64,000 nucleotides of DNA from Escherichia coli (GTDB lineage Bacteria; Pseudomonadota; Gammaproteobacteria; Enterobacterales; Enterobacteriaceae). The notes beneath the pieces were generated by a model that saw nothing but the letters and a program-made list of their open reading frames with translations, searched no databases and was not told the DNA's origin. The stretch lies in the NCBI RefSeq assembly GCF_041886205.1, contig NZ_CP169029.1. One strand, written 5' to 3'. Of the stretch, positions 12,214 through 64,000 are shown one piece after another. The translations under genes were made by a program, and so were the position numbers. Each line of letters starts with the position of its first letter. Position 1 is the stretch's first letter.

Positions 12214-13332
12214 ATGCATAACCAGGCTCCAATTCAACGTAGAAAATCAACACGTATTTACGTTGGGAATGTGCCGATTGGCGATGGTGCTCCCATCGCC
12301 GTACAGTCCATGACCAATACGCGTACGACAGACGTCGAAGCAACGGTCAATCAAATCAAGGCGCTGGAACGCGTTGGCGCTGATATCGTCCGTGTCTCCG
12401 TACCGACGATGGACGCGGCAGAAGCGTTCAAACTCATCAAACAGCAGGTTAACGTGCCGCTGGTGGCTGACATCCACTTCGACTATCGCATTGCACTGAA
12501 AGTAGCGGAATACGGCGTCGATTGTCTGCGTATTAACCCTGGCAATATCGGTAATGAAGAGCGTATTCGCATGGTGGTTGACTGTGCGCGCGATAAAAAC
12601 ATTCCGATCCGTATTGGCGTTAACGCCGGATCGCTGGAAAAAGATCTGCAAGAAAAGTATGGCGAACCGACGCCGCAGGCGTTGCTGGAATCCGCCATGC
12701 GTCATGTTGATCATCTCGATCGCCTGAACTTCGATCAGTTCAAAGTCAGCGTGAAAGCGTCTGACGTCTTCCTCGCTGTTGAGTCTTATCGTTTGCTGGC
12801 AAAACAGATCGATCAGCCGTTGCATCTGGGGATCACCGAAGCCGGTGGCGCGCGCAGCGGGGCAGTAAAATCCGCCATTGGTTTAGGTCTGCTGCTGTCT
12901 GAAGGCATCGGCGACACGCTGCGCGTATCACTGGCGGCCGATCCGGTCGAAGAGATCAAAGTCGGTTTCGATATTTTGAAATCGCTTCGTATCCGTTCGC
13001 GAGGTATCAACTTCATCGCCTGTCCGACCTGTTCGCGTCAGGAGTTTGATGTTATCGGTACGGTTAACGCGCTGGAGCAACGCCTGGAAGATATCATCAC
13101 TCCGATGGACGTTTCGATTATCGGCTGCGTGGTGAATGGCCCAGGTGAGGCGCTGGTTTCTACACTCGGCGTCACCGGCGGCAACAAGAAAAGCGGCCTC
13201 TATGAAGATGGCGTGCGCAAAGACCGTCTGGACAACAACGATATGATCGACCAGCTGGAAGCACGCATTCGTGCGAAAGCCAGTCAGCTGGACGAAGCGC
13301 GTCGAATTGACGTTCAGCAGGTTGAAAAATAA
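12214..13332 (+). CDS. ispG: 4-hydroxy-3-methylbut-2-en-1-yl diphosphate synthase
   Basis: 372 aa; C-terminal cluster Cys (CPTCSRQ ... GCVVNGPGE). Confidence 0.95.
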
Positions 13333-13442
13333 TAACGTGATGGGAAGCGCCTCGCTTCCCGTGTATGATTGAACCCGCATGGCTCCCGAAACATTGAGGG
13401 AAGCGTTGAGGGTTCATTTTTATATTCAGAAAGAGAATAAAC

Positions 13443-14717
13443 GTGGCAAAAAACATTCAAGCCATTCGCGGCATGAACGATTACCTGCCTGGCGAAACGG
13501 CCATCTGGCAGCGCATTGAAGGCACACTGAAAAACGTGCTCGGCAGCTACGGTTACAGTGAAATCCGCTTGCCGATTGTAGAGCAGACCCCGCTATTCAA
13601 ACGTGCGATTGGTGAAGTCACCGACGTGGTTGAAAAAGAGATGTACACCTTTGAGGATCGCAATGGCGACAGCCTGACTCTGCGCCCTGAAGGGACGGCG
13701 GGCTGTGTACGCGCCGGCATCGAGCATGGTCTTCTGTACAATCAGGAACAGCGTCTGTGGTATATCGGGCCGATGTTCCGTCACGAGCGTCCGCAGAAAG
13801 GGCGTTATCGTCAGTTCCATCAGTTGGGCTGCGAAGTTTTCGGTCTGCAAGGTCCGGATATCGACGCTGAACTGATTATGCTCACTGTCCGCTGGTGGCG
13901 CGCGCTGGGTATTTCCGAGCACGTAACTCTTGAGCTGAACTCTATCGGTTCGCTGGAAGCACGCGCCAATTACCGCGATGCGCTGGTGGCATTCCTTGAG
14001 CAGCATAAAGAAAAGCTGGACGAAGACTGCAAACGCCGCATGTACACTAACCCGCTGCGCGTGCTGGATTCAAAAAATCCGGAAGTGCAGGCGCTTCTCA
14101 ACGATGCTCCGGCATTAGGCGATTATCTGGACGAGGAATCTCGTGAGCATTTTGCCGGTCTGTGCAAACTGCTGGAGAGCGCGGGGATCGCTTACACCGT
14201 CAACCAGCGTCTGGTGCGTGGTCTGGATTACTATAACCGTACCGTTTTCGAGTGGGTGACTAACAGCCTCGGTTCCCAGGGCACCGTGTGTGCAGGCGGT
14301 CGTTATGACGGTCTGGTGGAACAACTGGGCGGTCGTGCAACACCGGCTGTCGGTTTTGCGATGGGCCTCGAACGTCTTGTATTGTTAGTACAGGCCGTTA
14401 ATCCGGAATTTAAAGCCGATCCTGTTGTCGATATATACCTGGTGGCTTCAGGTGCTGATACACAATCTGCGGCTATGGCATTAGCTGAGCGTCTGCGTGA
14501 TGAATTACCGGGCGTGAAATTGATGACCAACCACGGCGGCGGCAACTTTAAGAAACAGTTTGCCCGTGCTGATAAATGGGGTGCCCGCGTTGCTGTGGTG
14601 CTGGGTGAGTCTGAAGTGGCTAACGGCACAGCAGTAGTGAAGGATTTGCGCTCTGGTGAGCAAACGGCAGTTGCGCAGGATAGCGTAGCCGCGCATTTGC
14701 GCACGTTACTGGGTTAA
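13443..14717 (+). CDS. hisS: histidine--tRNA ligase
   Basis: 424 aa, [18 protein letters not shown]...; class II aaRS motifs; apparent GTG start. Confidence 0.95.
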
Positions 14718-14734
14718 GGAAGGAGAAGGACAGC

Positions 14735-15355
14735 GTGGAAATTTACGAGAACGAAAACGACCAGGTAGAAGCGGTTAAACGCTTTTTTGCTGAAAATGGC
14801 AAAGCACTGGCTGTTGGGGTGATTTTGGGCGTTGGCGCACTGATTGGCTGGCGCTACTGGAACAGCCATCAGGTTGATTCTGCACGCTCCGCTTCTCTTG
14901 CCTATCAAAATGCGGTTACCGCAGTGAGCGAAGGCAAACCGGATAGCATCCCGGCGGCGGAAAAATTTGCTGCTGAAAATAAAAATACTTATGGTGCGCT
15001 GGCTTCTTTGGAACTTGCGCAGCAATTTGTTGACAAAAATGAACTAGAGAAAGCTGCCGCCCAGTTACAACAGGGGCTGGCAGACACGAGCGATGAAAAT
15101 CTCAAAGCCGTGATAAATCTGCGTCTTGCTCGCGTTCAGGTACAGCTCAAGCAGGCTGATGCCGCGCTGAAAACCCTTGATACCATCAAAGGTGAAGGGT
15201 GGGCTGCCATTGTTGCCGACCTGCGTGGTGAAGCATTGCTGAGCAAAGGTGATAAGCAAGGTGCGCGTAGTGCATGGGAAGCAGGCGTGAAAAGCGATGT
15301 TACTCCGGCACTGAGCGAAATGATGCAGATGAAAATTAATAATTTGTCCATCTGA
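14735..15355 (+). CDS. yfgM: TPR-like membrane-anchored protein YfgM
   Basis: 206 aa, N-terminal transmembrane helix, conserved position between hisS and bamB. Confidence 0.85.
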   Translation: MEIYENENDQVEAVKRFFAENGKALAVGVILGVGALIGWRYWNSHQVDSARSASLAYQNAVTAVSEGKPDSIPAAEKFAAENKNTYGALASLELAQQFVDKNELEKAAAQLQQGLADTSDENLKAVINLRLARVQVQLKQADAALKTLDTIKGEGWAAIVADLRGEALLSKGDKQGARSAWEAGVKSDVTPALSEMMQMKINNLSI

Positions 15356-15365
15356 GAGGGACCCG

Positions 15366-16544
15366 ATGCAATTGCGTAAATTACTGCTGCCAGGACTGCT
15401 TTCCGTTACCCTTTTAAGCGGCTGTTCGCTGTTTAACAGCGAAGAAGATGTGGTAAAGATGTCCCCATTGCCAACCGTTGAAAACCAGTTTACGCCGACC
15501 ACGGCGTGGAGCACTTCCGTTGGTAGCGGCATTGGCAACTTCTATTCCAATCTTCATCCGGCACTGGCGGACAACGTTGTCTATGCAGCGGACCGCGCTG
15601 GTTTAGTAAAAGCGCTGAATGCGGATGATGGCAAAGAAATCTGGTCTGTCAGCCTGGCCGAGAAAGATGGCTGGTTCTCTAAAGAGCCTGCATTACTTTC
15701 TGGCGGTGTGACCGTGTCTGGTGGGCATGTCTACATTGGCAGCGAAAAGGCGCAGGTTTACGCGCTGAATACCAGCGATGGTACTGTGGCATGGCAAACT
15801 AAAGTCGCGGGTGAAGCACTTTCGCGCCCGGTGGTCAGCGACGGTCTGGTGTTAATCCACACCAGTAACGGTCAGTTACAAGCGCTGAACGAAGCTGACG
15901 GCGCTGTCAAATGGACAGTTAACCTCGATATGCCTTCGCTCTCTTTGCGTGGCGAGTCTGCGCCGGCAACGGCTTTTGGTGCGGCCGTCGTGGGGGGCGA
16001 TAATGGTCGCGTCAGCGCAGTGCTGATGGAACAGGGCCAGATGATTTGGCAGCAGCGTATTTCCCAGGCGACCGGTTCTACCGAAATTGACCGTCTGAGC
16101 GATGTTGACACGACTCCCGTCGTTGTTAACGGCGTTGTTTTCGCGCTGGCCTATAATGGTAACCTGACGGCGCTTGATCTGCGCAGTGGTCAGATTATGT
16201 GGAAACGCGAACTGGGTTCGGTGAATGATTTCATCGTCGACGGCAATCGCATCTATCTGGTCGATCAAAATGACCGGGTGATGGCGTTGACCATTGATGG
16301 CGGCGTTACGCTGTGGACACAAAGCGATCTGCTGCATCGCCTGCTGACTTCTCCGGTGCTGTATAATGGCAACCTGGTGGTCGGTGACAGTGAAGGTTAT
16401 TTGCACTGGATTAACGTCGAAGATGGTCGTTTCGTTGCCCAGCAAAAAGTTGATAGTTCCGGTTTCCAGACTGAACCGGTTGCCGCTGACGGCAAACTGC
16501 TGATCCAGGCAAAAGACGGAACCGTGTACTCTATTACACGTTAA
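15366..16544 (+). CDS. bamB: outer-membrane protein assembly factor BamB (lipoprotein, beta-propeller)
   Basis: 392 aa; lipobox LLSGCS; repeated propeller-blade motifs. Confidence 0.9.
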   Translation: MQLRKLLLPGLLSVTLLSGCSLFNSEEDVVKMSPLPTVENQFTPTTAWSTSVGSGIGNFYSNLHPALADNVVYAADRAGLVKALNADDGKEIWSVSLAEKDGWFSKEPALLSGGVTVSGGHVYIGSEKAQVYALNTSDGTVAWQTKVAGEALSRPVVSDGLVLIHTSNGQLQALNEADGAVKWTVNLDMPSLSLRGESAPATAFGAAVVGGDNGRVSAVLMEQGQMIWQQRISQATGSTEIDRLSDVDTTPVVVNGVVFALAYNGNLTALDLRSGQIMWKRELGSVNDFIVDGNRIYLVDQNDRVMALTIDGGVTLWTQSDLLHRLLTSPVLYNGNLVVGDSEGYLHWINVEDGRFVAQQKVDSSGFQTEPVAADGKLLIQAKDGTVYSITR

Positions 16545-16564
16545 TCGTCTCTGTCGTTCACTTT

Positions 16565-16603
16565 GAAAACGGCTCCTGGACAGGGGCCGTTTTCCTGTTT
16601 TTA
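16565..16603 (+). terminator. rho-independent terminator after bamB
   Basis: Hairpin gaaaacggc...gccgttttc followed by CTGTTTTT. Confidence 0.6.
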
Positions 16604-16661
16604 ACAACGACGCGAATATAGCGTGCGTTGTCTGATGATTTATAAAAATGAGGCTTTAAAC

Positions 16662-18134
16662 ATGGTACCTGTGGTCGCGCTTGTCGGGCGCCCTAACGTA
16701 GGAAAATCCACGTTATTTAACCGTCTAACTCGCACCCGAGATGCGCTGGTTGCGGATTTCCCGGGTCTGACTCGTGACCGTAAGTACGGTCGTGCGGAAA
16801 TTGAAGGCCGTGAGTTTATCTGTATTGATACCGGCGGGATTGATGGCACAGAAGACGGTGTAGAAACCCGCATGGCGGAACAGTCGCTGCTGGCGATTGA
16901 AGAAGCGGACGTCGTACTGTTTATGGTGGATGCGCGCGCGGGCCTGATGCCGGCAGATGAAGCGATTGCCAAACATCTGCGCTCCCGTGAAAAACCGACC
17001 TTCCTGGTGGCAAACAAAACTGACGGTCTGGATCCCGATCAGGCAGTGGTTGATTTCTACTCGCTTGGTTTAGGTGAAATCTACCCGATCGCCGCGTCTC
17101 ACGGTCGTGGCGTATTAAGTCTGCTGGAGCATGTGCTGCTGCCGTGGATGGAAGATCTCGCACCGCAAGAGGAAGTCGACGAAGACGCTGAATACTGGGC
17201 GCAATTTGAAGCGGAAGAGAACGGCGAAGAAGAAGAGGAAGACGACTTCGACCCGCAAAGTCTGCCGATCAAACTGGCGATTGTGGGTCGTCCGAACGTA
17301 GGTAAGTCTACACTCACTAACCGTATTCTTGGTGAAGAGCGCGTTGTTGTTTACGACATGCCTGGCACGACGCGTGACAGCATCTACATCCCAATGGAAC
17401 GCGATGGACGTGAGTATGTGCTCATTGACACCGCTGGCGTACGTAAACGCGGCAAAATCACCGATGCTGTAGAGAAATTCTCCGTAATCAAAACGTTGCA
17501 GGCCATTGAAGACGCCAACGTGGTGATGTTAGTGATTGATGCGCGCGAAGGTATTTCCGATCAGGATCTCTCGCTGCTGGGCTTTATTCTCAATAGTGGG
17601 CGCTCACTTGTCATTGTGGTGAATAAGTGGGATGGCCTGAGTCAGGAAGTGAAAGAGCAGGTGAAAGAAACGCTGGACTTCCGTCTGGGCTTTATCGATT
17701 TTGCTCGAGTGCACTTTATCTCTGCCTTGCACGGCAGTGGTGTTGGTAACTTGTTTGAATCAGTACGTGAAGCGTATGACAGCTCCACCCGTCGTGTGGG
17801 GACCTCTATGCTGACGCGCATCATGACGATGGCTGTTGAAGATCACCAACCGCCGCTGGTACGCGGTCGTCGTGTGAAGCTGAAATATGCCCACGCCGGT
17901 GGTTATAACCCGCCGATTGTGGTGATTCACGGTAATCAGGTGAAAGACCTGCCTGATTCCTACAAGCGCTACTTGATGAACTACTTCCGCAAATCGCTGG
18001 ACGTAATGGGATCGCCGATTCGTATTCAGTTCAAAGAAGGGGAAAACCCGTATGCGAATAAGCGTAACACCCTGACGCCAACTCAGATGCGTAAACGTAA
18101 GCGTCTGATGAAGCACATCAAGAAAAGTAAGTAA
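16662..18134 (+). CDS. der: ribosome-associated GTPase Der (EngA), tandem GTPase domains
   Basis: Two G-domains (GRPNVGKST at both); 490 aa from the ATG at 16662. The ORF-track start at 16623 is an upstream extension. Confidence 0.95.
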
Positions 18135-18193
18135 TTACTTATCTGGTTTCCCTTTTCGCATGGAGAGGGAAACCGAATAACACGCGAGGAGTA

Positions 18194-18412
18194 TTGATGG
18201 AATTCACTTGCCCAACCTGCCATAAACCTCTCGAACACCACGGCGAGACGGCTCACTGCGTAACTTGCGATAAAGATTTCACCATCCAGGCACGTTGCCC
18301 TGACTGCCATCAGCCGCTACAGGTGTTAAAGGCTTGTGGCGCTGTGGACTATTTCTGTCAACATGGTCACGGATTAATTTCTAAAAAACGCGTTGAGTTT
18401 ATTATCGCTTAA
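18194..18412 (+). CDS. yfgJ: zinc-ribbon-like small protein YfgJ
   Basis: 72 aa with two CxxC pairs (CPTCHK...CVTCDK, CPDCHQ...CQHGH). Confidence 0.75.
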   Translation: MMEFTCPTCHKPLEHHGETAHCVTCDKDFTIQARCPDCHQPLQVLKACGAVDYFCQHGHGLISKKRVEFIIA

Positions 18413-18428
18413 TATCATTCGAATGTAT

Positions 18429-18467
18429 GGTTTTATCATTTGTATTTAATATACAAATGATAAAACC
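18429..18467. repeat. perfect 17-bp inverted repeat (ggttttatcatttgtat / atacaaatgataaaacc), hairpin at the core/accessory junction
   Basis: Read directly; 5-nt spacer; followed by T-rich sequence; lies in the AT-rich 190-bp leader of the SinH-like gene. Confidence 0.5.
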
Positions 18468-18621
18468 TTCTCTTATTAGTTAAATCATTAATACATGTGA
18501 GTAAAATTATTTAGATATATTTTTAGGAATATATTTAGTTTTTCTGACGTGCCTTCCTGAATGTTCTGGCATAGAATATTAGAGCTTATTCATCAAATTA
18601 TCATTGCCACAGGGAAAGTGC

Positions 18622-20796
18622 ATGCTGCGATGGAGTCGCTTTATTATGTTACTATTCATCTCTGCTGCAACTCCTGCGGCAGAGATAAATAGTAAGCAAA
18701 ACGAATCGTTACCTGATTTAGGCAGCCAGGCGGCTCAACAAGTAGAACAAACGGATAAGGGTAAATCGTTAAAAGAGCGTGGAGCCGATTACGTCATTGA
18801 TTCTGCTACGCAAGGGTTTGAAAACCTAACCCCCGAGGCGCTGGAATCTCAGGCCAGAAGCTATCTGCAAAGTCAAATCACCTCAACCGCACAATCTTAT
18901 ATTGAAGACACACTCTCTCCCTACGGTAAGGTCCGTTCGAATCTCTCTATTGGTCAGGGTGGCGATCTGGATGGTAGCTCCATCGATTATTTTGTTCCCT
19001 GGTATGATAATCAAACGACCGTTTATTTCAGTCAATTTTCTGCGCAACGAAAAGAGGATCGTACGATCGGGAATATCGGAATTGGAGTAAGACATAATTT
19101 CGATGAATGGCTTTTGGGTGGGAATATATTTTACGATTATGATTTCACCCGTGGGCATCGTCGTTTAGGTTTAGGGACAGAAGCCTGGACCAATTATTTA
19201 AAATTTTCTGGCAACTATTATCATCCGCTCTCTGACTGGAAAAACTCTGAGGATTTCGACTTTTATGAAGAGCGTCCGGCGCGCGGTTGGGATATTCGTG
19301 CTGAAGCCTGGTTACCTTCTTATCCACAACTGGGGGGCAAGATTGTCTTCGAGCAATATTACGGTGATGAAGTCGCCCTTTTTGGTACGGATAATTTAGA
19401 GAAAGATCCCTATGCGGTGACGCTAGGACTAAATTATCAACCGGTACCGTTACTGACAGTTGGAACGGATTATAAAGCGGGGACCGGAGATAACAGCGAT
19501 GTCAGCATTAATGCCACTCTTAATTATCAGTTCGGCGTTCCGCTAAAAGATCAACTCGACAGCGATAAAGTAAAAGCAGTCCACTCGTTGATGGGTAGCC
19601 GACAGGACTTTGTCGAGCGTAATAACTTTATCGTCCTGGAATATAAAGAGAAAGACCCTCTGGATGTGACGTTGTGGCTGAAAGCGGATGCGACCAACGA
19701 GCATCCAGAGTGCGTCATTAAGGACACTCCTGAAGCGGCGGTCGGTCTGGAAAAATGTAAGTGGACCATTAACGCACTGATCAATCACCACTACAAAATT
19801 GTCGCTGCGTCATGGCAGGCGAAAAACAATGCCGCCCGCACGCTGGTGATGCCGGTCATCAAAGAAAATACCATCACTGAAGGCAACAACAACCACTGGA
19901 ATCTGATACTGCCAGCCTGGCAGTACAGCTCTGACAAAGCTGAGCAGGAAAAACTCAATACCTGGCGGGTACGGCTGGCGCTGGAAGATGAAAAAGGTAA
20001 TCGGCAAAACTCCGGCCTGGTGGAAATCACTGTTCAGCAGGACCGTAAAATAGAGCTTATCGTCAATAACATTGCCGATGCGCCTGCCGAGAATAACCAC
20101 AGCCATGAAGCCAGCGCTCAGGCGGATGGCGTTGATGGTGTAGTCATGGACCTCGAGGTGACGGACAGTTTTGGCGATAACACGGACCGCAACGGTGATG
20201 CTCTGCCAGAAGATAATCTTGCACCGCAGCTCTACGACGCTCAGGACAAAAAAGTCACGCTAACCAATAAACCCTGCTCGACCGACAACCCCTGCGTGTT
20301 TATTGCCAAACAAGATAAAGAAAAGGGAACGGTAACCCTCTCCAGTACATTGCCAGGCGTTTTCCGCTGGAAAGCGAAAGCGGCTCCCTACGATGACAGT
20401 AACTATGTGGATGTCACGTTTATTGGATCTGATATCGGCGGGCTTAATGCTTTCATTTACCGGCTTGGGGTAGCGAAGCCAGTCAATTTGATCGGCAATG
20501 ATAAAGACCCCCTGCCGCTGGGCAACACGTACCGATTTGTGTTGTGGCGTGATGCCAACAAAGACGGCGTTTTTCAGCAGTCGGAAAAACTAACCGATGA
20601 AGAGATGACTCAGTACGACTACAAGTGGGAATTTACCGGCAAGAGCATCAATGGCGAAGTAGGTGCGCAGGCGAACACATCCAATGCAGACATTGTAATA
20701 CCGGCGACCAACCGTGAAGCGGCGCAATCCTATGGTGCAAAAGTGGAAGATGGCTTGCAGGGATACGGTTTACGCGTGCTGTACACCAAAAAATAA
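18622..20796 (+). CDS. sinH: intimin/invasin-family inverse autotransporter adhesin (SinH-like)
   Basis: 724 aa from the ATG at 18622 (ORF-track start 18604 is an alternative upstream start); signal peptide MLRWSRFIMLLFISAATPAA; N-terminal beta-barrel-type region with alternating aromatic motifs (WTNYLKFSGNYYHPL, TLGLNYQPVP), then C-terminal passenger; position and architecture as recalled for Salmonella sinH. Confidence 0.75.
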   Translation: MLRWSRFIMLLFISAATPAAEINSKQNESLPDLGSQAAQQVEQTDKGKSLKERGADYVIDSATQGFENLTPEALESQARSYLQSQITSTAQSYIEDTLSPYGKVRSNLSIGQGGDLDGSSIDYFVPWYDNQTTVYFSQFSAQRKEDRTIGNIGIGVRHNFDEWLLGGNIFYDYDFTRGHRRLGLGTEAWTNYLKFSGNYYHPLSDWKNSEDFDFYEERPARGWDIRAEAWLPSYPQLGGKIVFEQYYGDEVALFGTDNLEKDPYAVTLGLNYQPVPLLTVGTDYKAGTGDNSDVSINATLNYQFGVPLKDQLDSDKVKAVHSLMGSRQDFVERNNFIVLEYKEKDPLDVTLWLKADATNEHPECVIKDTPEAAVGLEKCKWTINALINHHYKIVAASWQAKNNAARTLVMPVIKENTITEGNNNHWNLILPAWQYSSDKAEQEKLNTWRVRLALEDEKGNRQNSGLVEITVQQDRKIELIVNNIADAPAENNHSHEASAQADGVDGVVMDLEVTDSFGDNTDRNGDALPEDNLAPQLYDAQDKKVTLTNKPCSTDNPCVFIAKQDKEKGTVTLSSTLPGVFRWKAKAAPYDDSNYVDVTFIGSDIGGLNAFIYRLGVAKPVNLIGNDKDPLPLGNTYRFVLWRDANKDGVFQQSEKLTDEEMTQYDYKWEFTGKSINGEVGAQANTSNADIVIPATNREAAQSYGAKVEDGLQGYGLRVLYTKK

Positions 20797-45528: not shown

Positions 45529-45567
45529 AGTAAAGCGCCTATAACACATAATACAGAGGATAATACT

Positions 45568-47653: not shown

Positions 47654-47668
47654 ATAAGGTGTTTATTG

Positions 47669-47761
47669 TCGGATGCGGCGCGAACGCCTTATCCGAACTA
47701 CGCGAAGTTAATCCATAGTATTCGTAGGCCGGATAAGACGTGGCAAGCGTCGCATCCGGCA
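47669..47761. repeat. BIME: two inverted REP elements between hda and yfgD
   Basis: ggatgcggcgcgaacgccttatccgaact ... gtaggccggataagacgtggcaagcgtcgcatccggc. Confidence 0.7.
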
Positions 47762-47790
47762 ATGTGCTTCAACTAGCGATGGAGCACATC

Positions 47791-48150: not shown

Positions 48151-48170
48151 TGTTCTTCCTTTAATGCGAA

Positions 48171-49634: not shown

Positions 49635-49846
49635 AACCTCTATCCTGTATTTCTGAAGATAGTCATTTGACCGATACTGTGAAATATCGTTCCCACCGCG
49701 CCGCCTTTGAGTGTAACGGCGAAGATTAGCCCACTCAAATGACTTTTCAGTTTCCTGAATCCGTCATAAAAAGCGAAGTCTTTTTTGTGACATTTCGATA
49801 CAATTGCGGATCGCAATCCCGCTCTTGAGGTTCAGGGAAGGTCTTT

Positions 49847-50908: not shown

Positions 50909-50910
50909 TC

Positions 50911-50946
50911 TTCAGCCCGACGAACTGTTTCGCCGGGCTGATTTTT
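50911..50946 (+). terminator. rho-independent terminator after perM (overlaps focB 3' end)
   Basis: tcagcccg...cgggctga then TTTTTT. Confidence 0.6.
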
Positions 50947-51794: not shown

Positions 51795-51815
51795 GCATAC
51801 TCCTGCAAAAGCAGA

Positions 51816-53831
51816 TTACAACACCTCGCGAACCGAGATCCCCAGACGCTGCATTCGTGACAGCAGCGTGGTGCGCTTCATCCCTAATCGTGTCGCCGCG
51901 CCACGGGGCCCGGCAACAATGCCATTGGTTTCTCGCAATACCTGAACAATGCGCTGACGTTCTTCTTCGTCATTCTCTGGCGTCGTCGGGTGCAGCAACT
52001 GCGCCATTGAACTGCGAAGCGCTGAATCTTCATTTAGCGTCGGCAGTAAACGGCTTTGTCGGACATTTAGATGTAAATTCAGACTGTTACCACGAGTCAA
52101 CAGTACCGCCCGCTCAATCACGTTTTCCAGCTCGCGCACGTTGCCCGGCCAATCCCACGACATCAACTGGCGTAGTGCCTCGGTCGGGATGGCGTCAATT
52201 GCGCGATTCATATGGCGCGCCATTTTTTGCGTGAAATGCTTTGCTAAAAGAGGGATATCTTCCGGACGGTCGCGTAGCGGCGGCAATTCCAGTGGGAAGA
52301 CATTCAGGCGATAAAAGAGATCGCTGCGAAACTGGCGATCTTCAACCATTTGCCACAAATCACGGTTGGTGGCGGCAATGACTCTGACATTCACCGGGAT
52401 CGTTCTACTCCCGCCGAGACGCTCAATCTCCCGTTCCTGCAATACGCGCAGCAGTTCAGGCTGAAGTTCTAACGGCAGATCGCCAATTTCATCGAGAAAC
52501 AACGTGCCGCCATCGGCAATTTCAAAACGACCACGATGGGTATTAATCGCACCAGTAAACGCCCCTTTGTCATGACCGAATAACTCACTTTCCAGAAGAC
52601 TGGCGGGGATGGCAGCGCAGTTGATTTTGACCAGCGGCTTGTCGTGTCGCGGGCTAAGTTGATGGATCGCTCTGGCGATCACCTCTTTGCCGGTTCCGGT
52701 TTCACCACAAATCAACACTGTACTGTCGCTCTTCGCCACAATATCTACCTGCTGGAGCAGGTCTTCCATTGCCTGGCTTTGATAGATAATGTCACCGACG
52801 CCCAGATTCGAAAGGAGCTGCTCGCTAAGCTGGTGGTTTTCTTGCTGCAAACTTTCCTGCAAATCGGTCATGCTACGCCAGGCATCGGCATTGCCAACGG
52901 CAATAGCGATGCGATCGGCTATGTGTTGTAGTAGCTGGCAGTTTTCCTCACTAAAGAGAGTGGAAGAGGTATGCGCCAGCAACAATGCACCCGGTGTATG
53001 GTTGCCAAAGGTAAGCGGTATCAGGAGCGCAGATTCGCAGCCGTTAGATGCAAGTAAGTGTAATAACGGGTCGCGTTGCCAGAGAAACAGATCGTCTGCA
53101 CGGTGCGTCAAGGTCGGTTGTCGGGTTTGTAGCGTTTGTGTCAGCAATACACTTTCGCCAGGCATACAGCGTGGCAGACACGCACAATGTGAGGCAGAAA
53201 GATCGCTGCACCACAGGCTGAACTTATCGTTCTTTCGATGATCTCCCAGTACCATACTGACTGAAGCCAGACCGAAAAAATGATGGATCTCACGGGCGAC
53301 GTCAGCGATCAGATCGTCGAGATCAAGATGTGACAGCACTGCATTAGTAATATCAACCAGTACCCGATGATGATCGCGATCTTTCTCCAGCAAACGCAGC
53401 GCCACCTGCTGTTCTTCATCATTGAGCCATGATTGCAGAACCGGGGTGATTATCCGCGCCAGCCAGTTAAACAGTGTGCAATCTTGGGGAGTAAAACGGC
53501 TGCCGTGGGTACGAATAAAGCGTAGCTCCGCCATTCCACTACTGCCGAGAAGGACGGCGTGACGCGAATAATCGACCATCTCGCCCTGATACTCTGTTGT
53601 TGCCGTCACATCGCTGCCATCATCATGGTAGCGGTAATAGAAGTTGCTTTTGAGAACATGCAGTTCAATAAGTTGTACCGGGCTGAACGGCGGCGGCAGC
53701 GGGATGAAGGCGCGTAATAAAGACGCCTTACTGTGTTTCTGCGCTAACCGCTCCGCGAGCATTCCGTTTACCGCTTCAATTGTTATTCCTTGCGGCGGGG
53801 CAAACATCGCCTCGTCTGACATAGCCATCAA
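51816..53831 (-). CDS. hyfR: sigma-54-dependent transcriptional activator of the hyf operon
   Basis: 671 aa (670 if the second Met is used); GAF-like N-domain, AAA+ sigma-54 interaction domain ([14 protein letters not shown]), C-terminal HTH. Confidence 0.9.
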
Positions 53832-53857
53832 CAGTCCTTATTAATGAGAAATCCTTC

Positions 53858-54271
53858 TCACGTAATTTTTCTGGCCATCAGATAGATGGCCGGTTCCTGC
53901 ACAATTTCATCCAACAGATGAATGAATTGAATGCTACGCGCCTGCCACACAGACGTCGCGTCATCCGCCAGTGGCGCGAATGCCCGGGTCAACAGGGCGG
54001 TGTGGCTGGCGTCAATAACAATCTCACCAAAAGTCATCACCCCCAGCATCTTACGTCGGGCTTGCTCCTCTTCGACCAGTGCAAGCCAATCTTCGTATTC
54101 CGTCAGTGGGCAGGGGAAGGCGACATTCAGACAATCAATCACGCCAACGTGATGACCGATAGCCAGCGAGTAATACATTACCTGAGAGCTGTGTTCCGGC
54201 ATCTCGTCGCTACTGGCGACAAACTTTTTTCGCAGCGTCCAGAAAACAATTTCCCCGCACTCTTCAGTCAT
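53858..54271 (-). CDS. hyfJ: hydrogenase-4 maturation/assembly protein (HycH-like)
   Basis: 137 aa from [17 protein letters not shown]; the ORF track extends 21 codons upstream. Confidence 0.8.
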
Positions 54272-55021
54272 GTAACCCCCGGAGTACGCGAAAGAGTTGC
54301 TGAACGATACTATTGAGACGTGGATCGTCGGCATCGCGCAACCAGGTGTTAACCCGATTTCCTGTAGGATCGTCGCTTAAATGGCGCAGGAGCCGATCGC
54401 AAATTTCTCGCCCCTGACGATAGCCCGCCAGCCGCCGCGCTTCTCGCTCAATGGCGATACGCTGTGATGGCGGGATCTGCGGCCACAACGGTTGCATAGT
54501 CACCCCGGTGGGATCGCGATAATCCACCGCGTGAATCTTCTGTTGCAGCAAACCGAGCGCCACGGCGAAACCGTGAATGGTGGCGGCCGGTGTTGGCGGG
54601 CAGCCGGGGATCCAAACATCAATGGGGACAATGGTGTCGCTGCCGCCCCAGACGCTGTAGAGATCGTGGAAAATCCGCCGCCGGCACCGCACGCGCCGTA
54701 GGAAACACAGATTTTATGATCGGGGGCAGACTCATACGCCCGAAGTGCAGGCATACGCATCGCCCGGGTGAGTGCGCCAGTAAATAACAAAATATCGGCG
54801 TGACGCGGTGATGAAACAACCTTAATGCCAAAACGTTCTGCGTCGAATACTGGTGTAATGGCGGCAAAAATTTCGATTTCACAGGCGTTGCAGCCACCGC
54901 AATCGACGCGATAAACGTAGGCTGAGCGACGGATATCCTGTAGCAAATGCCGCTTCATCTTTTGCGTTTGCTCGTCCAGCGTGATGGGCTGGCTGACATA
55001 TTGCGTAAGCACTGGACTCAT
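54264..55021 (-). pseudogene. hyfI: hydrogenase-4 small subunit (NuoB-like), disrupted by a -1 frameshift near 54675
   Basis: Two ORFs (54500..55021 and 54264..54692) in different frames. The first reads intact through ...[14 protein letters not shown] and the second resumes at [27 protein letters not shown]; 116 + 136 = 252 aa, matching the NuoB motif spacing (CANGGG-YYHY-SYSVV); locus length 758 bp instead of 759. Confidence 0.75.
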
Positions 55022-55563
55022 AGCTGCTCCTTAGCCACCAGCGGTACATCTGTATCGTCGTTGAGCAGCGTCGCGCGTTGTTTGCACTCCGGGCAGACGC
55101 TCGCTTGCGCCCATAACATTTCGCGGTTTTGTGGCGCATTTTGTTGCTGTGCCAACAATTCAGCAGCCAGTGCGACGGTTTTTTGCGGGGCAAACGGGCG
55201 TTCGCAACGGCTGCAACGTTGTAGATGGAACGTCGCGCGGGTATAGAGATCGGCTTTATTGGTGACGGTCAGTTCAAAGTTATTGGTAAGCTGGATGGCT
55301 CTGGTCGGGCACACTTCTTCACAACGTCCGCAGTAAATACAACGCCCCAGATAGAGCTGCCAGGTGCGCGAATTTTGCTGGTCGTCGGTCTGGATAGTCA
55401 GCGCATTTGCCGGACAAGCACAGGCGCAGGCACCGCAGGCAATACATTGGCTGGGCATCAGGTCCGGTTTCCCGCGAAAGCCTGGGCTGACCTCCAGTGG
55501 CGCGAAGGGATATTTCACCGTCGCGGTTCCGGCGCGCATAATAGTTTTCAGTAACTTCAGCAT
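55018..55563 (-). CDS. hyfH: hydrogenase-4 ferredoxin-like subunit (2x 4Fe-4S)
   Basis: 181 aa; [12 protein letters not shown] and [12 protein letters not shown] motifs. Confidence 0.9.
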
Positions 55564-55572
55564 CTTCTGTCC

Positions 55573-57288
55573 TTACTTCAGCGGCGAACGGTTACGATCA
55601 ATGCCGTAGCGTTCGATCTCTTTATACGGCACGGTTTTTGACTGGCGCTTGCGCACATCTACCAGCGTCACACGGTCGGTACAGGAGTAGCAGGGATCAA
55701 GGCTACCGATAATCAGCGGTGCGTCAGAAACGGTATTGCCGCGCAGCATGTAACGCAACACCGGCCAGTTGGCGTAGGTGGCGGCACGACAGCGCCAGCG
55801 GAACAATTTTTGGTTATCACCGAGCATGCTCCAGTGCACGTCTTCGCCGCGTGGCGCTTCAACAAAGCCCAGCGCGAATGCGTGAGGTTTATAGCTAAAG
55901 CCTTCGGTCAGCAGTGGGGTATCCGGCATGTTGTCGAGGGCAAATTCCAGCATTGCCAGCGAATCAAACGTCTCTTTGACACGGACCATCATGCGGGAGA
56001 AGACATCGCCGCCGGTAAAGGTAAACAGTGTTTTTGGAATATTGCCGTAGTCGGCGTAGGGGTGATCAAAGCGCAAATCACGGGCAAAACCACTGCCGCG
56101 GATCAGCGGCCCTACAGGGCTATAATCACGGGCGATTTGTCGGTCGAGAATGCCAATGCCCTGAGTGCGTTGTTCCATATTCGGCGTAGCAAGCAGCATC
56201 TCTACCAGCTCCGACACGTCGGCGCGCATCTCGCGCACCAGTTTCAGCGTTTGCAGACGTTGCTCTTTGAGAATATCGCGGCGAACACCACCAATCAGAT
56301 TCAGACCGTAGGTTTTACGCGACCCGATCAGCAATTCCGCCATCGTCATCGACTTTTCCCGCACGCGGAAAAATTGCATAAAGCCGGTATCAAAACCAAC
56401 GAAATGGCAGGAGAGGCCAAGGTTAAGCAAATGACTGTGTAGCCGTTCGACTTCCAGCAGAATCGAGCGAATAGTATGTGCTCGTTGCGGCACCTCAATC
56501 CCCAGTGCATTTTCAACCGAGTTGGTATAGGCCACACTGTGGGCAAAACCGCAAATCCCACACACGCGGTCCGATAAGAAGGTCACTTCGTTGTAGCCCA
56601 TCCGCGTTTCTGCCAGTTTCTCCATGCCGCGATGGACATAAAACAGGCGGTAATCAGCATCGACAATTTGCTCGCCATTCACAAACAAGCGGAAGTGACC
56701 CGGTTCATCGGAGGTGATATGCAGCGGGCCGACAGGGATCACCCGCGCATCGCTGTTGCCCTCATTGATAAACGCATACGTTTCGGAATCTGTCGTCGGT
56801 TCAGGGCGCAGTCGATAATCCATCGCATCTTTGCGCAGCGGATGCATATCTTCCGGCCAGTCATCGGGCAACACCAGGCGACGCTGATCCGGCAGGCCAA
56901 CCGGAATCAGCCCGTACATATCGCGAATTTCTCGCTCGCCCCAGACCGCGGCAGGGACGCGCAGTGTGACTGACGGAAACTCCCGACTGTCGGCATCGAC
57001 CAGTGCCTTAACCACGATCCAGCATTTTTCGGCCCCTTCCATAGAAAGGGCATAATAAACGGCGTAATGACCGTTAAGTGTCCGCTCGTCGTTGCCAAAC
57101 AGGACCGGAAGCCAGCCATCATGTTGATAATAAAGATAATGTACAACGTCAGGCAGCAGATTGATTTTCACCGTAATGGTGACCTGTTCAGGCGTTTGTC
57201 GCTCTTCATCCAGCACCGCGCCGGGGAACTGCGTTTTCAGGGCGGCGAGAATCGCTTCGCCACGATTTGACGATGAATTAACGTTCAC
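55573..57288 (-). CDS. hyfG: hydrogenase-4 large (NiFe) subunit
   Basis: About 571 aa from the GTG at 57288 (RBS GAGAAA); NiFe-hydrogenase large-subunit motifs ([12 protein letters not shown]-terminal, [10 protein letters not shown]-terminal); exact start uncertain. Confidence 0.85.
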
Positions 57289-58858
57289 TGTGTTTCTCCG
57301 AAACAGATGCGGTGCCTGAAGGCAAAAAATCATGCCAGGTGCTACGTTGTGCAGGCAGGTCGTGCGTCCCTGAGAGGACTATAGTGGAAGCGCCCGCCAG
57401 GATCCTGATGACAGGTTGTGGAATATGCGTTCCCATCGCCAGCATCATGACCAGCAGAATCACCATTGGCGAGGTGGTCAACCAGCCGAGATCACCCCGG
57501 TTAACGGCCTGCGGCGGTTTCGCCATTAACACCCGCGCAGCCATCCGTACCAGGCCCGCCAGCACCAGCGTTAACAGCAATAACAGCATGACGATAATCA
57601 GCAGGTGATTACGTGCCAGTCCGGCGGTAACGGTCATAAATTCGCTAAGAAAAATGTTGAAGGGCGGCATCCCGGCCAGCGCCAGCGCACCGCCGCCAAA
57701 CAGCACGGCGGTAAATGGCATGATTTTGAGCATCCCGCAGACGACGTTGAGATCGCGCGTGCCGTACTTGAGCAGTACATTGCCGGAACCGCAGAACAGC
57801 AGCGTTTTTGCCAGACTGTGGTTTAAGGTGTGCAGCAGCGCGGCAAAAATTCCCAGCGGCCCGCCAATGCCTAGCGCCACCGCGACCAGTCCCATGTTCT
57901 CCACGCTGGAGTACGCCAGCAGACGCTTAATGTCCCGCTGTACCAGAATGAAAAATGCCGCCACGGCAACCGACAACATGCCGAAGATGAGCAACAACCG
58001 GTTGGGGAAATCGCTGCCGATGGCCTGGCAGATAATGATGTAATAGCGAATCATCACCAACAGCGCGCAGTTCAGCAATACGGCGGAGAGCAGGGCGCTG
58101 ACCGGACTCGGCGCTTCACTGTGAGCATCCGGCAGCCAGGCGTGCATAGGAAATAGCCCGGTTTTGGTACCAAAGCCAATTAGCACAAACACAAAGGCCA
58201 ATAGCATTAATGTTGGGTCAAGCAAGGACTATTGCTTAAGAACCTCGCTCCAGAATATCGCCATTTCTGCCTGCGGCATAACGCTGGCGGCGTTGGCGTA
58301 TACCAGCACGGTACCGAACAGACCAAAAGCGACGCCAACAGTACAAATAATGATGTACTTCCATGCAGCTTCCAGCGATGAACGCTGACCGTAAATGCCT
58401 ACCAGAAACGCCGAGCTTAAGGTGGTGGCTTCGATCGCCGCCCACATCACAATCAGGTTATTGCTGGTAACAACCAGCAGCATGGTGAACAAAAACAGAT
58501 GGAAGAAACCGTAGTAATCGCACAGCGTAACGGGTGAAAGCTCGCCGTGTGCCACTTCATGACGCATGTAGCCAATCGAGTAAACACCGGTGAGAAAGCC
58601 AATCACACCAAGAATGGCGAGGAACAAACCGCCCAGACCATCAATATGAAGCCACAGTCCCGCAGCGAATATTTCTCCCGCACCAGCGGCAGTTTGAACC
58701 AACCAGAGTGCCAGAATCAGCAGCAGTGTGATCCCTAAGCTATGTAATACTGTCACCGCGCGAGTCGCAGAGTGCCCCCGTTTCCGGCAGGCAAAACAGA
58801 GCAGCGAAAAAAGCAGCGGCGTGAGCAGGAGTAAAGCGAACATCACAGAATAACTCAT
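57278..58858 (-). pseudogene. hyfF: hydrogenase-4 membrane subunit (NuoL/M/N-like), interrupted by an in-frame amber codon (TAG at 58229-58231)
   Basis: ORFs 58229..58858 (209 aa) and 57278..58225 (315 aa) are in the same frame, separated by TAG plus one codon; 209 + 1 + 1 + 315 = 526 codons, i.e. one gene with a nonsense mutation. Confidence 0.75.
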
Positions 58859-58862
58859 CTCA

Positions 58863-59513
58863 TTATCCCTTCAGCGCGGTCAAGTTGTTCACGTCCAGCG
58901 TGCCGTGGGTACGCCATATTTTTCTTGCCAGTAACACCATCACAATGACGGCGAAGATGGCGTCGGTAGCGATACCTATTTCCACCAGTTCCGGTGCTCG
59001 CCAGGCAAGAAGCGCCAGCACCAGATGGGAGCCGTTTTCCATCAGGCAGTAACCAAAAATTTGCCGCAGGATATTGCGCTGGCTGACAATGCACAGCAGG
59101 CCAAGCAGAAAATGACCTAACGCTACCGCCAGCGCCGGTTTCAGCCCGGTAGCCATCGGTAGCTTCATGGGCTGAACGACAAATGCGCAAAGCAGGACAA
59201 TTAACGCCGCGAGCAGTGCCATCATTGCCGGACCGAATAACGCTTTTTCCGGGATGTTCTGGGGAATATTTCGTGCAGCGTAAGTCATGATTAACGGTAC
59301 CAGCAGCACTTTGGTGATAAAGGCGCTGGCGGACCAGATCAGCAGTTGCTCTGCGGCGAACAGGCACGAGAGAGTGGCGAAAATAGACACCAGCACCAGC
59401 GACTGGCAGGCGTAAAATCCGCATGACAGGCGATAGCTTTTGACGCTAATCACAAACAGCGATGTCAGCATCATCAGTCCCGCCAGATTATTTACGATCA
59501 TAGAACCGGTCAT
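58863..59513 (-). CDS. hyfE: hydrogenase-4 membrane subunit
   Basis: 216-aa hydrophobic protein in the conserved position. Confidence 0.9.
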
Positions 59514-59524
59514 TCATCATCTCC

Positions 59525-60963
59525 TTACTGCAACCAGGTCGCGGCGATTACGCTGGAAATCAGCGACATCACAATCAGTACAATCAACACCAGGCGCATT
59601 GACCCTGGCAGCGGTGCGGCATCGGCGACGGCCTCGCTCGGTTTGCCAGGCACAACGCGACCAAACCAGCGAATAAACCAGGCGAAACTGGCGACCGATT
59701 CAATCATCAGCAGAATCATGGCGGGCAGCAGGATCCAGTACTCCACTGACAACGCAAAACCGGCAGCAAACAGCGGGAATTTACTGAAGAAGCCGTTGAA
59801 CGGCGGCACACCGGTAATCGCCAGCGCTGCCACGCAGAAACCCACGCCTGGCAACGGCAGGGTGTGCAATACGCCACGCAGACGCGGCAACAAGCGCGTG
59901 CCGCAGCTGTAACTCAGCGCACCTGCTACAAGGAAAAACAGGCTTTTAGCGAACGCGTGGTTGACGATGTAGGCGATGCTACCCTCCAGCGCCAGCCGCG
60001 AGCCGAAGATGGAGAGCGACAAACCGAAGAACATCCAGCCAAGTTGAGTGATGGTCGACCAGGCCAGCAACCGCTTCATATCCTGCTGTGGCAAATACAT
60101 CAGAAAGCCATAAAGAATGGTGACCAGGGCCATGACCATGCCAACGCCGCCAATCACATGCGGGATATTGCCACCGTCGATAATGGCGCGGGCAAAAATG
60201 TAAACGCCCACTTTCACCATCGATGCGGCGTGGAGATAGGCGCTGATCGGTGTTGGCGCTTCCATTGCATCCGGTAGCCACGCTTGCATCGGTAGCTGGG
60301 CCGATTTCCCCCACGCGGCAAACAGGATGCCGCCATAAACCAGATAACGTGCGTCGCCGTGTAACTCGCTCATCGCGCTAAGCGCAAACGTTCCGGTCTG
60401 CAAAAACAGCGTGGCGGCGGCAAGATACAACCCCAACGAGCCGATATGAGTGATAAGTAACGCTTTTAGTGCTGAACGCTGTGCTTTATCGCTCTGGTAA
60501 TAACTGATCAACGCCCAGGAGCAGCCGCCCGTAATTTCAAAAAACAACAACTGACCGAGCAGCGTCGAGGAGAGTACCAGTCCCGCCATCGCGCCGATAA
60601 ACAACAGCAAAAATGCGTAATAACGATTCGTGCCGTTATGCGGGTGTTCGCGATTTTTATCCGTCAGATAACCCGTGGAGTAGATCGTGACCAGCAAACC
60701 GAGAAACACCACCACAAACAGAATCAGCGTACTCACGCGATCAATGAGCAGGCCAAACAACGCCACATCCCCCACGTTGACCAACGTCAACGTGACGGCA
60801 ACTTTATCGGCCTGATAAAACGCGGAGATCAGCGACAACATGCACAGCGTGGTCAGTGCGGCGAACAAAACCCCCATTCGGCGGCCCGACGTTGTGGCGA
60901 AAACGAAACGACCAGTGCGCCGATAAAAGGCAGCATTAACGTCGTCAGAGCAAGATTTTCCAT
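59525..60963 (-). pseudogene. hyfD: hydrogenase-4 membrane subunit (NuoL/M-like), -1 frameshift in a C5 run (plus strand 60871-60875)
   Basis: True start ATG at 60963 with RBS TAAGGAG reads MENLALTTLMLPFIGALVVSFSPQRRAAEWG and then hits TGA. The 450-aa ORF continues in the -1 frame from VLFAALTT; 31 + 448 = 479 aa; locus length 1439 bp is not a multiple of 3. Confidence 0.75.
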
Positions 60964-60979
60964 ATTCCGTCAGTGCTCC

Positions 60980-61927
60980 TTACAGACCGGTTAACCAGAA
61001 GACCCATGCAAGCGCAGCAAGGCTGAAGCCAAGCCAGGTCACATGGTGAATGAGTAAAAAACGCCCGCGTGCCAGCGTGTTTTCTGCGATTGAGGCCAGT
61101 ACAAAAATCAGCAAAACCTTGAGCAGCGTAACGACAAGTGAAGTCAGCAGGCAGGCGAGAGAAAGTTCTTGCGCGCGCCCAAAGGGCAGAAACAGGGCCA
61201 CAAACAGTGCTGCCATCACGACCTGTTTCAGCCCCAGCCCCCATTTCGCTAGCGCCAGCCCGGCACCGGAATATTCGGTCAGCGGGCCTTCCTGTAATTC
61301 CTGTTCTGCTTCAGCAACATCAAAGGGAATTTTTCCCATCTCAATGAAGCAGGCAAAACCACAGGCCAGTAACGCCAGTACGGTGGTTAGCGGCGAGTTC
61401 CAGCCCGTTGCCAGCGTATTGCTGATCATCTCGATATGCGTGGAACCTGCTATCAGCGCCAATACCAGCAGTGAGAGAATGAGCATGGGTTCGACCAGAA
61501 TGCCGAGCGTCAACTCGCGACTGGCACCGACTCCCGCAAACGGGCTTCCGGTATCCAGCCCGGAAAGAGCAAAGAAAAAACGAAACAGGGCAAGAAGATA
61601 GATAAGGGTGATCAGATCGCCGCCGCCCGCAAAAGGGGAAACGGTAATAAAAAGTGGTAGGGCCATCGCCAGCACCAGCATGCTGCTGATTAATACCCAC
61701 GGCATCAGGCGGAACATCAGACCTGAAGATATAGGCGCAACTTCCTGGCGTTTAAACAGTTTGTGGATATCGCGATAATCCTGCCAGATCCCCGGCCCGC
61801 GGCGGGAGTGCATACGCGCGCGTATCTGCCGGGAAATACCCGTAAAAAGCGGGGTTAGCAGCAGCAGAATCACGGCCTGTGCTAACGCAAAAATGACCAG
61901 ATATCCGTCGCAAAGAGTTTGTCTCAT
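60980..61927 (-). CDS. hyfC: hydrogenase-4 membrane subunit (NuoH-like)
   Basis: 315 aa from MRQTLCDGYLVIFALAQAV; the ORF-track start is 7 codons upstream. Confidence 0.9.
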   Translation of the reverse strand: MRQTLCDGYLVIFALAQAVILLLLTPLFTGISRQIRARMHSRRGPGIWQDYRDIHKLFKRQEVAPISSGLMFRLMPWVLISSMLVLAMALPLFITVSPFAGGGDLITLIYLLALFRFFFALSGLDTGSPFAGVGASRELTLGILVEPMLILSLLVLALIAGSTHIEMISNTLATGWNSPLTTVLALLACGFACFIEMGKIPFDVAEAEQELQEGPLTEYSGAGLALAKWGLGLKQVVMAALFVALFLPFGRAQELSLACLLTSLVVTLLKVLLIFVLASIAENTLARGRFLLIHHVTWLGFSLAALAWVFWLTGL

Positions 61928-61937
61928 GGTGATTTCC

Positions 61938-63955
61938 TTAGACGGCAATAGCGATTAGCAGCACAACCAGTGCGGCGACCACATACAGGCAATAGAGACG
62001 AAAGTCGCCGCTTTGCAGATGCTGTATTTCTTTGGCCAGCCGTTGGGTGGCGCTCACGATGGGGCGGATCACCCGCTCATCCCAGAAGGGTTCTGTGCTC
62101 TGAGCCCTGGCGGTGACGTGCGCAAGACCTTTATTTAGCCTCAGCGTAGGGTCGAGCTGTTGTCGTAGACGAAATAGCGCAGAAAAGACCACACGCAGCG
62201 GCTGCATCACGCCATTGCCTGACGGGGCCATCGCATTTTCCCAGCCGTAGCCGCATGCCCAGGCATCTCCTGTGCGACGAAACGCTGCGCGGCGCGAACG
62301 ACACCACAGCCAGTAAAGGCCAGGCAGCAAAGGCATCGCCAGTAGTAACAGCAACAGTAATGAGGGTGTGACCCGTGTATGAAACGTGCCGGGTACAAGT
62401 GCTATTCCGCTGGCGACAGTGACGGGAGGGGTATTGGTAAACGCATGGGCAATGTGCATTATCTTCGGTGCCAGCCAACTGGCACTGAGCGCAATTAATA
62501 CGCAGAGTGCCGCGAGCAGTAGCATGGCGACGATCATTGTATTTGGCACTTCCTGTGCCTCTTCAGCGTGTGTGCTGCGCGGCGCACCACAGAAAGTAAT
62601 ACCGTAGATTTTGACGAAGCACATTACTGCCAGCCCACCAGTGACTGCCAGCATTACCATAGCAATAGGACCCGCAAGTTGTAGCGCTACGGCTTCCACA
62701 CGACTTAGTGAGAACAGCAACTGCCAGGTGTACCATTCGCTGATAAAACCATTCAGCGGAGGAATGGCTGATATCGCGAGGCAACCAATCAGGCATGCTG
62801 CGGCTGTCCACGGCATCCGTTTCGCCAGTGCCCCCATTTTTTCCATGTCGTGGGTATGCAAACGCGAAATAATCGCACCCGCGCCGAGAAATAGCAGCCC
62901 TTTGAACAGCGCATGGTTGAGCAGATGAAACAGTGCGCCGAGCAGTCCAACCACGGTGAGCAGCGGGTCGTGCAGTGACAGACCGTCCATCGCCACACCG
63001 ACCGCCAGCAAAATAATGCCGACGTTTTCGACGGTACTCCAGGCCAGCAGCCGTTTGATATCCTGTTCCGCCAGTGCATACAGCACGCCCAGGAGCGCGG
63101 AGATTGCGCCGATCGCCATCACCAGAGTGCCCCACCACAGAGGCAAACCCGTTTGCGCCAGCAGATCCATCGCTACTTTCAGGATGCCGAAAATACCGAT
63201 TTTGACCATTACGCCAGACATCAACGCCGAAGCGTGCGATGGTGCGGCAGGGTGAGCGCGCGGCAACCAGCTGTGCAACGGCATCATCCCGGCTTTCGCG
63301 CCAAAACCGAAAAAGGCCAGCAGAAACACCGCCGACGCCAGCCCCGGAGAAAGTGAAAGCGTGCGAAACTGGCAAAATCGAGGCTGCCGCTTTCGCGCCC
63401 CATCAGCAAGAAGGCGATCATAATCAGCACCGATCCGGCGTGGGCGATAAAAAAGTAGAGCATGCCAGCGTTGATCGACGTTTTATCCTGCCTGGCAATG
63501 ACCAGAAACCAGGAAGACAGCGACATCATTTCAAACAGCACGATGAACCAAAAAGCGTTGTCCATCACCAGCAGGGCAACCATCGATGCGATGAAAAGAT
63601 TCATAAAGAAGCCCATCGCCGCCGCGCCTTTGCCCTCGTATTCGCGCATATAAGTCAATGAATAGAGCGAACAAACCACCACCAGCAAGGAGATAACCAG
63701 CACCATAAATGCCGAGAGGCTATCCATTCGCAGGGTTAAATCGGCAAAGTCAAAAGGGGTGGCAAAATGGGCGACTAAAGTTACACCAGCATGTAATTGC
63801 GTAATTCCGCTGATGATGCCAATCACGCCGCCCACCAGCGATGTGATGCCGGAAAGCTTAATAGCCAGTCTGTCCAGACCGAGTAAAAACAGCGAAGCCA
63901 GACTGGCAAACAGATAGAGGATCAGCGACCAGGTTAATAATTGCAGGGCATCCAT
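61938..63955 (-). pseudogene. hyfB: hydrogenase-4 membrane subunit (NuoL-like), -1 frameshift around 63360-63370
   Basis: ORFs 63284..63955 (real through ...GSLDFASF) and 61938..63329 (resuming RTLSLSPGLAS-VFLLAFFGFGAKAGMMPLHSWLP) are in different frames; 197 + 475 = 672 codons with one shared nucleotide. Confidence 0.75.
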
Positions 63956-64000
63956 TAGTGTTGCTCCTGAGTGAGGGAAAGGGGATCCTCCCCGCCATTG
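63955..64000 (-). CDS. hyfA: 3' end of the upstream hyf gene (presumably hyfA), partial
   Basis: An open frame enters from the window edge and ends at a TAA overlapping the hyfB ATG (TAATG), with AGGAG serving as the hyfB RBS; identity inferred from operon order only. Confidence 0.35.
   Translation of the reverse strand, partial: NGGEDPLSLTQEQH

Follow-up and report, generated by a model that had tools for sequence, protein, structure and literature searches.

A 64,000-nt stretch of Escherichia coli DNA (hereafter, the window) carries a hyfF gene that has become a pseudogene through an inherited nonsense mutation of an ordinary kind, in an operon that is broken at several sites. The evidence makes it very probable that this gene for hydrogenase 4 subunit F, an antiporter-like membrane subunit, is a natural pseudogene in which the serine codon TCG at position 210 was changed to TAG in a single event, and that this change is one of four lesions in a decaying hyf operon.

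The hyfF pseudogene occupies positions 57278..58858 on the minus strand and comprises 526 codons plus a stop, interrupted at codon 210 by an amber codon (58229..58231, minus strand) that was defined by translation, comparison with orthologues and exact 63-mer counts. On the minus strand the sequence at the stop reads GAG GTT CTT AAG CAA TAG TCC TTG CTT GAC CCA ACA TTA ATG CTA TTG, the interval 58234..58223 corresponding exactly to CAA-TAG-TCC-TTG. When the 527 codons from 58858 to 57278 are read in a single frame, codon 210 and the terminal codon are the only stops. This translation bears out the preliminary description of the region, which had proposed an in-frame amber codon in a 526-codon gene, two halves lying in the same frame and a truncation at about 40 percent (209/526 codons, or 39.7%). 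The peptide quoted there as S-L-D was one Leu short, the actual residues being S-L-L-D.

Over its entire length the gene is colinear with its K-12 counterpart (1581/1581 nt, 98.3% identity, zero indels). The preliminary description had recommended comparing codon 210 with orthologous sequences, and this codon is TCG (Ser) in all six non-TAG alleles examined, namely those of K-12, O157:H7, E2865, PRO_A, RX24 and 503025. Among the sense codons that it had listed as one step away from TAG, TCG is hence the ancestral one found in the orthologues. The mutation, a C>A transversion, replaced the middle base of the codon, at window position 58230 (G>T on the plus strand), and not the first-position T that had been singled out as the base to check. 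With a sense codon in the orthologues and a gene that is otherwise colinear, hyfF displays the features of a nonsense pseudogene.

The stop is highly reproducible. The exact 63-mer centred on TAG was present in 291 of the 4273 hyfF-bearing complete E. coli genomes (~7%), the remainder differing by at least one base, and at least 30 complete RefSeq genomes, that of the enterotoxigenic (ETEC) strain H10407 among them, matched the full 1581-nt gene with 100% identity. These data answer, indirectly, the call of the preliminary description for read support, and they bear on the possibility that TAG is a sequencing or assembly error standing in for a sense codon. Such an error would be compatible with a single-base difference from the TCG of K-12; however, the identical TAG and 1581-nt gene recur in hundreds of independent complete genomes from varied hosts, countries and platforms, and a substitution is unlike the usual homopolymer-type assembly mistake. 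On this population evidence we rejected sequencing error, the probability of which is practically nil. The TAG allele is in fact already known as a RefSeq pseudogene entry, the PGAP label of hyfF in both H10407 and strain wlxctx60 being pseudogene with an 'internal stop'.

Only 296 genomes carry a gene with at least 99% identity to the window hyfF haplotype, and the coincidence of TAG and haplotype (291 vs 296 genomes) indicates a single origin of the allele. SNP maps of the TAG-bearing genomes examined delimited a minimal, perfectly identical tract at 57148..58901. In individual genomes the identical tract spanned 57148-59123, 57107-59123, 57062-58901 (two genomes) or 56903-59365, that is, 1.8-2.5 kb with ends that vary by genome, and the flanks diverged by 5-10 SNPs per 500 bp (1-2%). 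This arrangement points to a recombination mosaic around a single-origin TAG allele that now resides on several flanking backgrounds. Other strains carry independent hyfF nulls, consisting of a 1-bp deletion at nt 47 or a stop at codon 123, and hyfF is absent altogether from 1132 of the 5426 genomes (21%), which agrees with the report that phylogroup B2 lacks hyf (PMC2617782). Synonymous to nonsynonymous counts on three hyfF haplotype branches were 7:7, 2:6 and 3:4; although the numbers are small, the approximate equality of both classes on all three branches suggests that constraint on hyfF is generally weak.

The identity of the locus is supported by its position between hyfE and hyfG in hyfABCDEFGHIJR-focB, as deduced from colinearity with K-12 and from how PGAP annotates an operon with 100% identity to it. 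In gene, position, length and frame, the window hyfF matches the intact HyfF of K-12 (b2486) and O157:H7 (WP_000122526.1), a protein of the NuoL/M/N-MrpA/D family; the difference resides in codon 210, which is TCG in those strains, where a full protein is encoded, and TAG in the window, where a 209-aa fragment is encoded. A conceptually repaired HyfF (Ser at 210) scored 1172 bits over residues 1-526/526 against the NCBIfam equivalog NF005041 (hydrogenase 4 subunit F), which requires a full-length match and has a curated cut-off of 951 bits. The real pieces scored 450 bits (N-terminal fragment) and 699 bits (C-terminal remnant), both below 951, and the actual hyfF products do not attain full-length membership of this family. 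In the repaired protein, Pfam domains PF00361 (Proton_antipo_M) and PF00662 cover residues 132-425 and 68-101, respectively; the stop at 210 interrupts PF00361 after ~78 of its 294 positions, leaving no uninterrupted domain. Judged from its sequence, the locus is hyfF by descent, without encoding a HyfF protein.

The only product expected from the locus is the N-terminal fragment of 209 aa (58232..58858, minus strand), encoded by an ATG-start ORF that extends over 58229..58858 when the stop is included. With NuoM as a guide, this fragment would span about the first six transmembrane helices, including the Glu of the IEATT motif. The ORF list also contained the C-terminal remnant (57278..58225, minus strand), 315 codons that are open from a TTG two codons past the stop and comprise a K-x-G-x-F-P-x-H-x-W-L-P-D-A-H motif and the remainder of PF00361; this remnant is presumed to be untranslated. 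Alignment confirmed homology to the solved relatives of HyfF, namely MbhH, MrpA/D, NuoL/M/N and HycC. In the alignments with MbhH and related proteins, residue 210 lies within a gap-rich, poorly conserved stretch, just before a conserved 15-residue segment that we take to correspond to the TM7 Lys and the TM8 region of NuoM in complex I. Because the stop precedes this conserved segment, most of the antiporter-like core is removed.

Gene by gene, the window is colinear with hyfABCDEFGHIJR-focB of K-12 at 98-99% identity, and three further genes of the operon are frameshifted. The hyfB pseudogene (61938..63955, minus strand) has suffered a 1-bp deletion, TTTCCGC to TTTCGC (CC to C), after window position 63366, equivalent to K-12 nt 591. 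This frameshift is the commonest of the four lesions, its exact 63-mer being present in 1256/4292 genomes (29%). The hyfD pseudogene (59525..60963, minus strand) shows contraction of a G6 run to G5 at window positions 60875..60871 (K-12 nt 89, codon 30), an allele found by the same kind of query in 995 of 4280 genomes (23%). Finally, hyfI (54264..55021, minus strand), annotated as encoding the catalytic (small) subunit, has lost a T after window position 54675 (K-12 nt 348), as have 682/3927 genomes (17%). Such frequencies (682-1256 genomes) indicate that the three deletions are real alleles, and PGAP labels hyfB, hyfD and hyfI as 'frameshifted' in wlxctx60. In the best-matching genome, pseudogenes account for 4 of the 11 complete hyf/focB genes vs 0 of ~36 other coding sequences of the window (hypergeometric p ~0.002).

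A lesion matrix was compiled from ten genomes with K-12 as the reference for deletions. Strains wlxctx60, G3/10, O91 RM7190 and 2013C-3033 combine TAG with the window-type frameshifts in hyfB, hyfD and hyfI, and 2013C-3033 bears a stop in hyfE in addition. ETEC 510016 carries TAG along with nothing other than an in-frame 216-nt deletion in hyfD, its hyfB and hyfI being intact. In E2865 the hyfI deletion is the sole hyf frameshift or stop, and a 48-nt-deleted hyfG allele is also present. Lesions in hyfC and focB were seen in further strains, and the hyf operon of O157:H7 is fully intact. A chronology of lesions deduced from their frequencies (hyfB > hyfD > hyfI > hyfF) would be unsafe, as 510016 has TAG with intact hyfB and hyfI.

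Two additional observations concern the length of other hyf genes. In the window hyfD, an ATG at 60877 in the new frame opens a 450-codon ORF, from which a HyfD shortened at its N-terminus by 29 residues could conceivably be made; the 407-aa 'subunit D' annotated in ETEC strains by older PGAP runs corresponds to a different allele, the in-frame 216-nt hyfD deletion. In several strains hyfH shows a 6-nt in-frame deletion polymorphism at K-12 nt 131 (540 vs 546 nt), the window gene being of the 546-nt type.

Termination at UAG is mediated by release factor 1, and a U following the stop codon constitutes a strong termination context. Release factor 1 would end translation at hyfF codon 210, where the next base is U, to yield the 209-aa fragment. 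Restricted to the N-terminal helices and devoid of everything from the K-x-G-x-x-P-x-H-x-W-L-P-D-A-H region onward, this fragment would provide no antiporter-like module. Downstream, hyfG (55573..57288, minus strand) is intact and belongs to a long allele of 571 aa, with 11 nt at its start shared with the end of hyfF. Given this overlap, the amber codon is predicted to abolish translational coupling between hyfF and hyfG, and the ~950 nt of untranslated hyfF mRNA ahead of hyfG could expose the transcript to Rho-dependent polarity.

We considered whether a suppressor tRNA or leaky termination might let translation proceed past the amber codon to an extent that supplies enough full-length HyfF for function. 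The 315 downstream codons are open and in frame, and the gap-rich stretch around residue 210 could tolerate almost any amino acid. An open downstream frame free of a second lesion is nevertheless also expected of a recent allele, and there would have been little time for further hits, since the TAG tract has zero diversity. Moreover, the 64-kb window contains no tRNA genes, suppressor or otherwise, the following base U places the codon in a strong termination context, and the stop is limited to one haplotype (7%) instead of being conserved. In E. coli, read-through of UAG occurs at a basal level well below 1-2%, and amber suppressors are laboratory alleles that are rare in wild isolates. The main point is that any full-length HyfF would be left without a partner complex, since hyfB, hyfD and hyfI are frameshifted; for the same reason, the caveat raised in the preliminary description about amber-suppressor backgrounds becomes moot. 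Functional read-through is thus highly improbable. Programmed recoding, whether by selenocysteine, pyrrolysine or conserved read-through, was also discarded: the codon is UAG and not UGA, it occurs in one haplotype from ~7% of genomes, and the other alleles examined have TCG. E. coli is not known to carry pyl genes.

A further alternative is that hyfF operates as a split gene, in which ribosomes resume translation at the TTG (58225) or an ATG eight codons past the stop (58207..58205) and both halves co-assemble. Some polytopic membrane proteins tolerate splitting, and the TTG two codons past the stop heads the 315-codon ORF. However, no Shine-Dalgarno-like sequence is visible upstream of either the TTG or the ATG in the sequence read, the break falls inside PF00361, the remaining complex is broken, and no other genome has hyfF annotated as two genes, the PGAP call being a pseudogene. 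A functional split of hyfF is accordingly scarcely credible, and a plain loss-of-function allele remains the reading that we favour.

With regard to function, the E. coli FHL-1 complex is inactive without HycC, the homologue of HyfB (PMC7384014). With hyfB, the hycC counterpart, and hyfI both broken, hydrogenase 4 and the FHL-2 complex could not be assembled, whether or not the amber codon is suppressed. The hyfF lesion on its own would have milder effects. A Pectobacterium atrosepticum delta-hyfDEF mutant retains H2 production, and in this bacterium the lack of hyfDEF raises HyfG levels and slightly increases H2 output (PMC7384014). In P. atrosepticum, the only species in which this has been tested, H2 evolution thus appears not to require HyfF, and, as H2 production is kept in the mutant, loss of hyfF alone would cost the accessory ion-translocation membrane module and not catalysis.

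The closest known counterparts of this pseudogene are found in two sequenced strains. The hyfF pseudogene of ETEC H10407 (ETEC_RS31470) is identical to that of the window over 1581 nt, TAG at codon 210 included, and like the window this strain has the hyfB frameshift. It differs in what accompanies the TAG: in place of the hyfD and hyfI frameshifts of the window, hyfD has lost 216 nt in frame and hyfI has a stop at codon 35. Over 20 kb the operon of wlxctx60 (hyfF, AC6IW3_RS15065) shows 100% identity with the window, and it has the same four pseudogenes; overall, this genome matches the window with 100% identity over positions 44000-64000 and with 99.987%, gap-free, over 1-44678.

The term 'silent operon' has been applied to the hyf genes (Self et al. 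2004, as cited in PMC7654741), and those of K-12 yield no H2 even when placed behind strong promoters (PMC7654741). Previous reports of silent or decaying hyf have dealt with poor expression or inactivity in K-12 and absence from phylogroup B2 (PMC7654741, PMC2617782). They describe inactivity or gene absence, whereas what we observe is a set of segregating point lesions. The multiple independent hyf nulls fit relaxed selection, and the decay of this operon extends through the species, probably because selection is relaxed on genes that are silent or inactive in E. coli. Our literature search returned no report of natural isolates with a hyfF, hyfB, hyfD or hyfI pseudogene, and nothing specific on premature stops in hyf or on hyf in H10407. 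The lesion frequencies compiled here are a modest addition to this picture and not a new kind of feature.

An alternative to neutral decay is that inactivation of hyf is advantageous and that the null alleles have been spread by positive selection together with recombination. The ~2-kb zero-diversity tract is found on at least three divergent backgrounds with differing ends, independent nulls are numerous and frequent (29% for hyfB, 23% for hyfD, 17% for hyfI), and the whole operon is missing in 21% of genomes. Selection for loss could also be reconciled with the higher HyfG content and slightly greater H2 output of P. atrosepticum lacking hyfDEF (PMC7384014). Nevertheless, in a species that commonly exchanges tracts of a few kb by recombination, neutral alleles are expected to give the same pattern, and each of the three other breaks in the operon is commoner than TAG, so that TAG may add no phenotype. 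The syn:nonsyn ratio of ~1:1 on the three hyfF branches likewise speaks, within the limits of small numbers, for weak constraint and not for a sweep. We therefore regard selected loss as unlikely, and decay under relaxed selection as the preferred reading.

A separate polymorphism affects hyfG, downstream of the amber codon. At 56086..56133 (minus strand), the window carries the long allele (571 aa), which exceeds the K-12 gene by 48 nt; the segment flanked by two copies of GCCCGTGATT is missing from the K-12 hyfG. The 16 residues missing from the K-12-type HyfG align without gaps to HycE (ARDFSNVGPMVRASGH), MbhL, Nqo4 and ND7, from HycE through to the 49-kDa subunits of complex I, and include a GPxxRxSG motif. 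The alleles were counted with a query located inside the 48-nt segment, because a 70-nt query spanning the K-12 deletion junction does not separate them; the long-allele segment was present in 2006 of the ~4294 genomes with hyfG and deleted in ~53%, K-12 included. No family was retrieved when both HyfG alleles were scanned against NCBIfam at E<=1e-100, and the length of HyfG was judged from the alignments with HycE, MbhL and Nqo4. No paper on the hyfG 48-bp deletion was found in our literature search.

The K-12-type hyfG deletion may bear on the inactivity of hydrogenase 4 in K-12 (PMC7654741). We put forward, as a tentative proposal that is more probably wrong than right, that hydrogenase 4 is being lost species-wide, through lesions shuffled by recombination and possibly selected rather than neutral, with the reference strain K-12 among those affected. 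Should the 48-nt deletion abolish the function of the catalytic subunit, an active hydrogenase 4 would be lacking in most E. coli, including K-12. Were this true, the decades in which its activity escaped detection would be explained, and fully intact operons, such as that of O157:H7, would be the right model.

The hyfF stop is in itself a finding of little weight, affecting a pseudogene already flagged by RefSeq in an operon that three further lesions also inactivate. Its use lies in genome annotation and metabolic modelling, where neither the source strain nor the ~300 others with the allele should be credited with hydrogenase 4 or FHL-2. Of moderate interest to the E. coli hydrogenase field is the large share of hyf-carrying genomes with at least one broken hyf gene.

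Elsewhere in the window, at ~12270..20322 (NZ_AP045833.1, 3143678..3151729), lies an 8052-nt gene for an 'adhesion domain-containing protein'. According to the annotation of the matching genome, it adjoins sinI/sinH (intimin-like inverse autotransporter) and is located between xseA and der. By annotation only, this region belongs to the accessory gene content and does not occur in this form in K-12.
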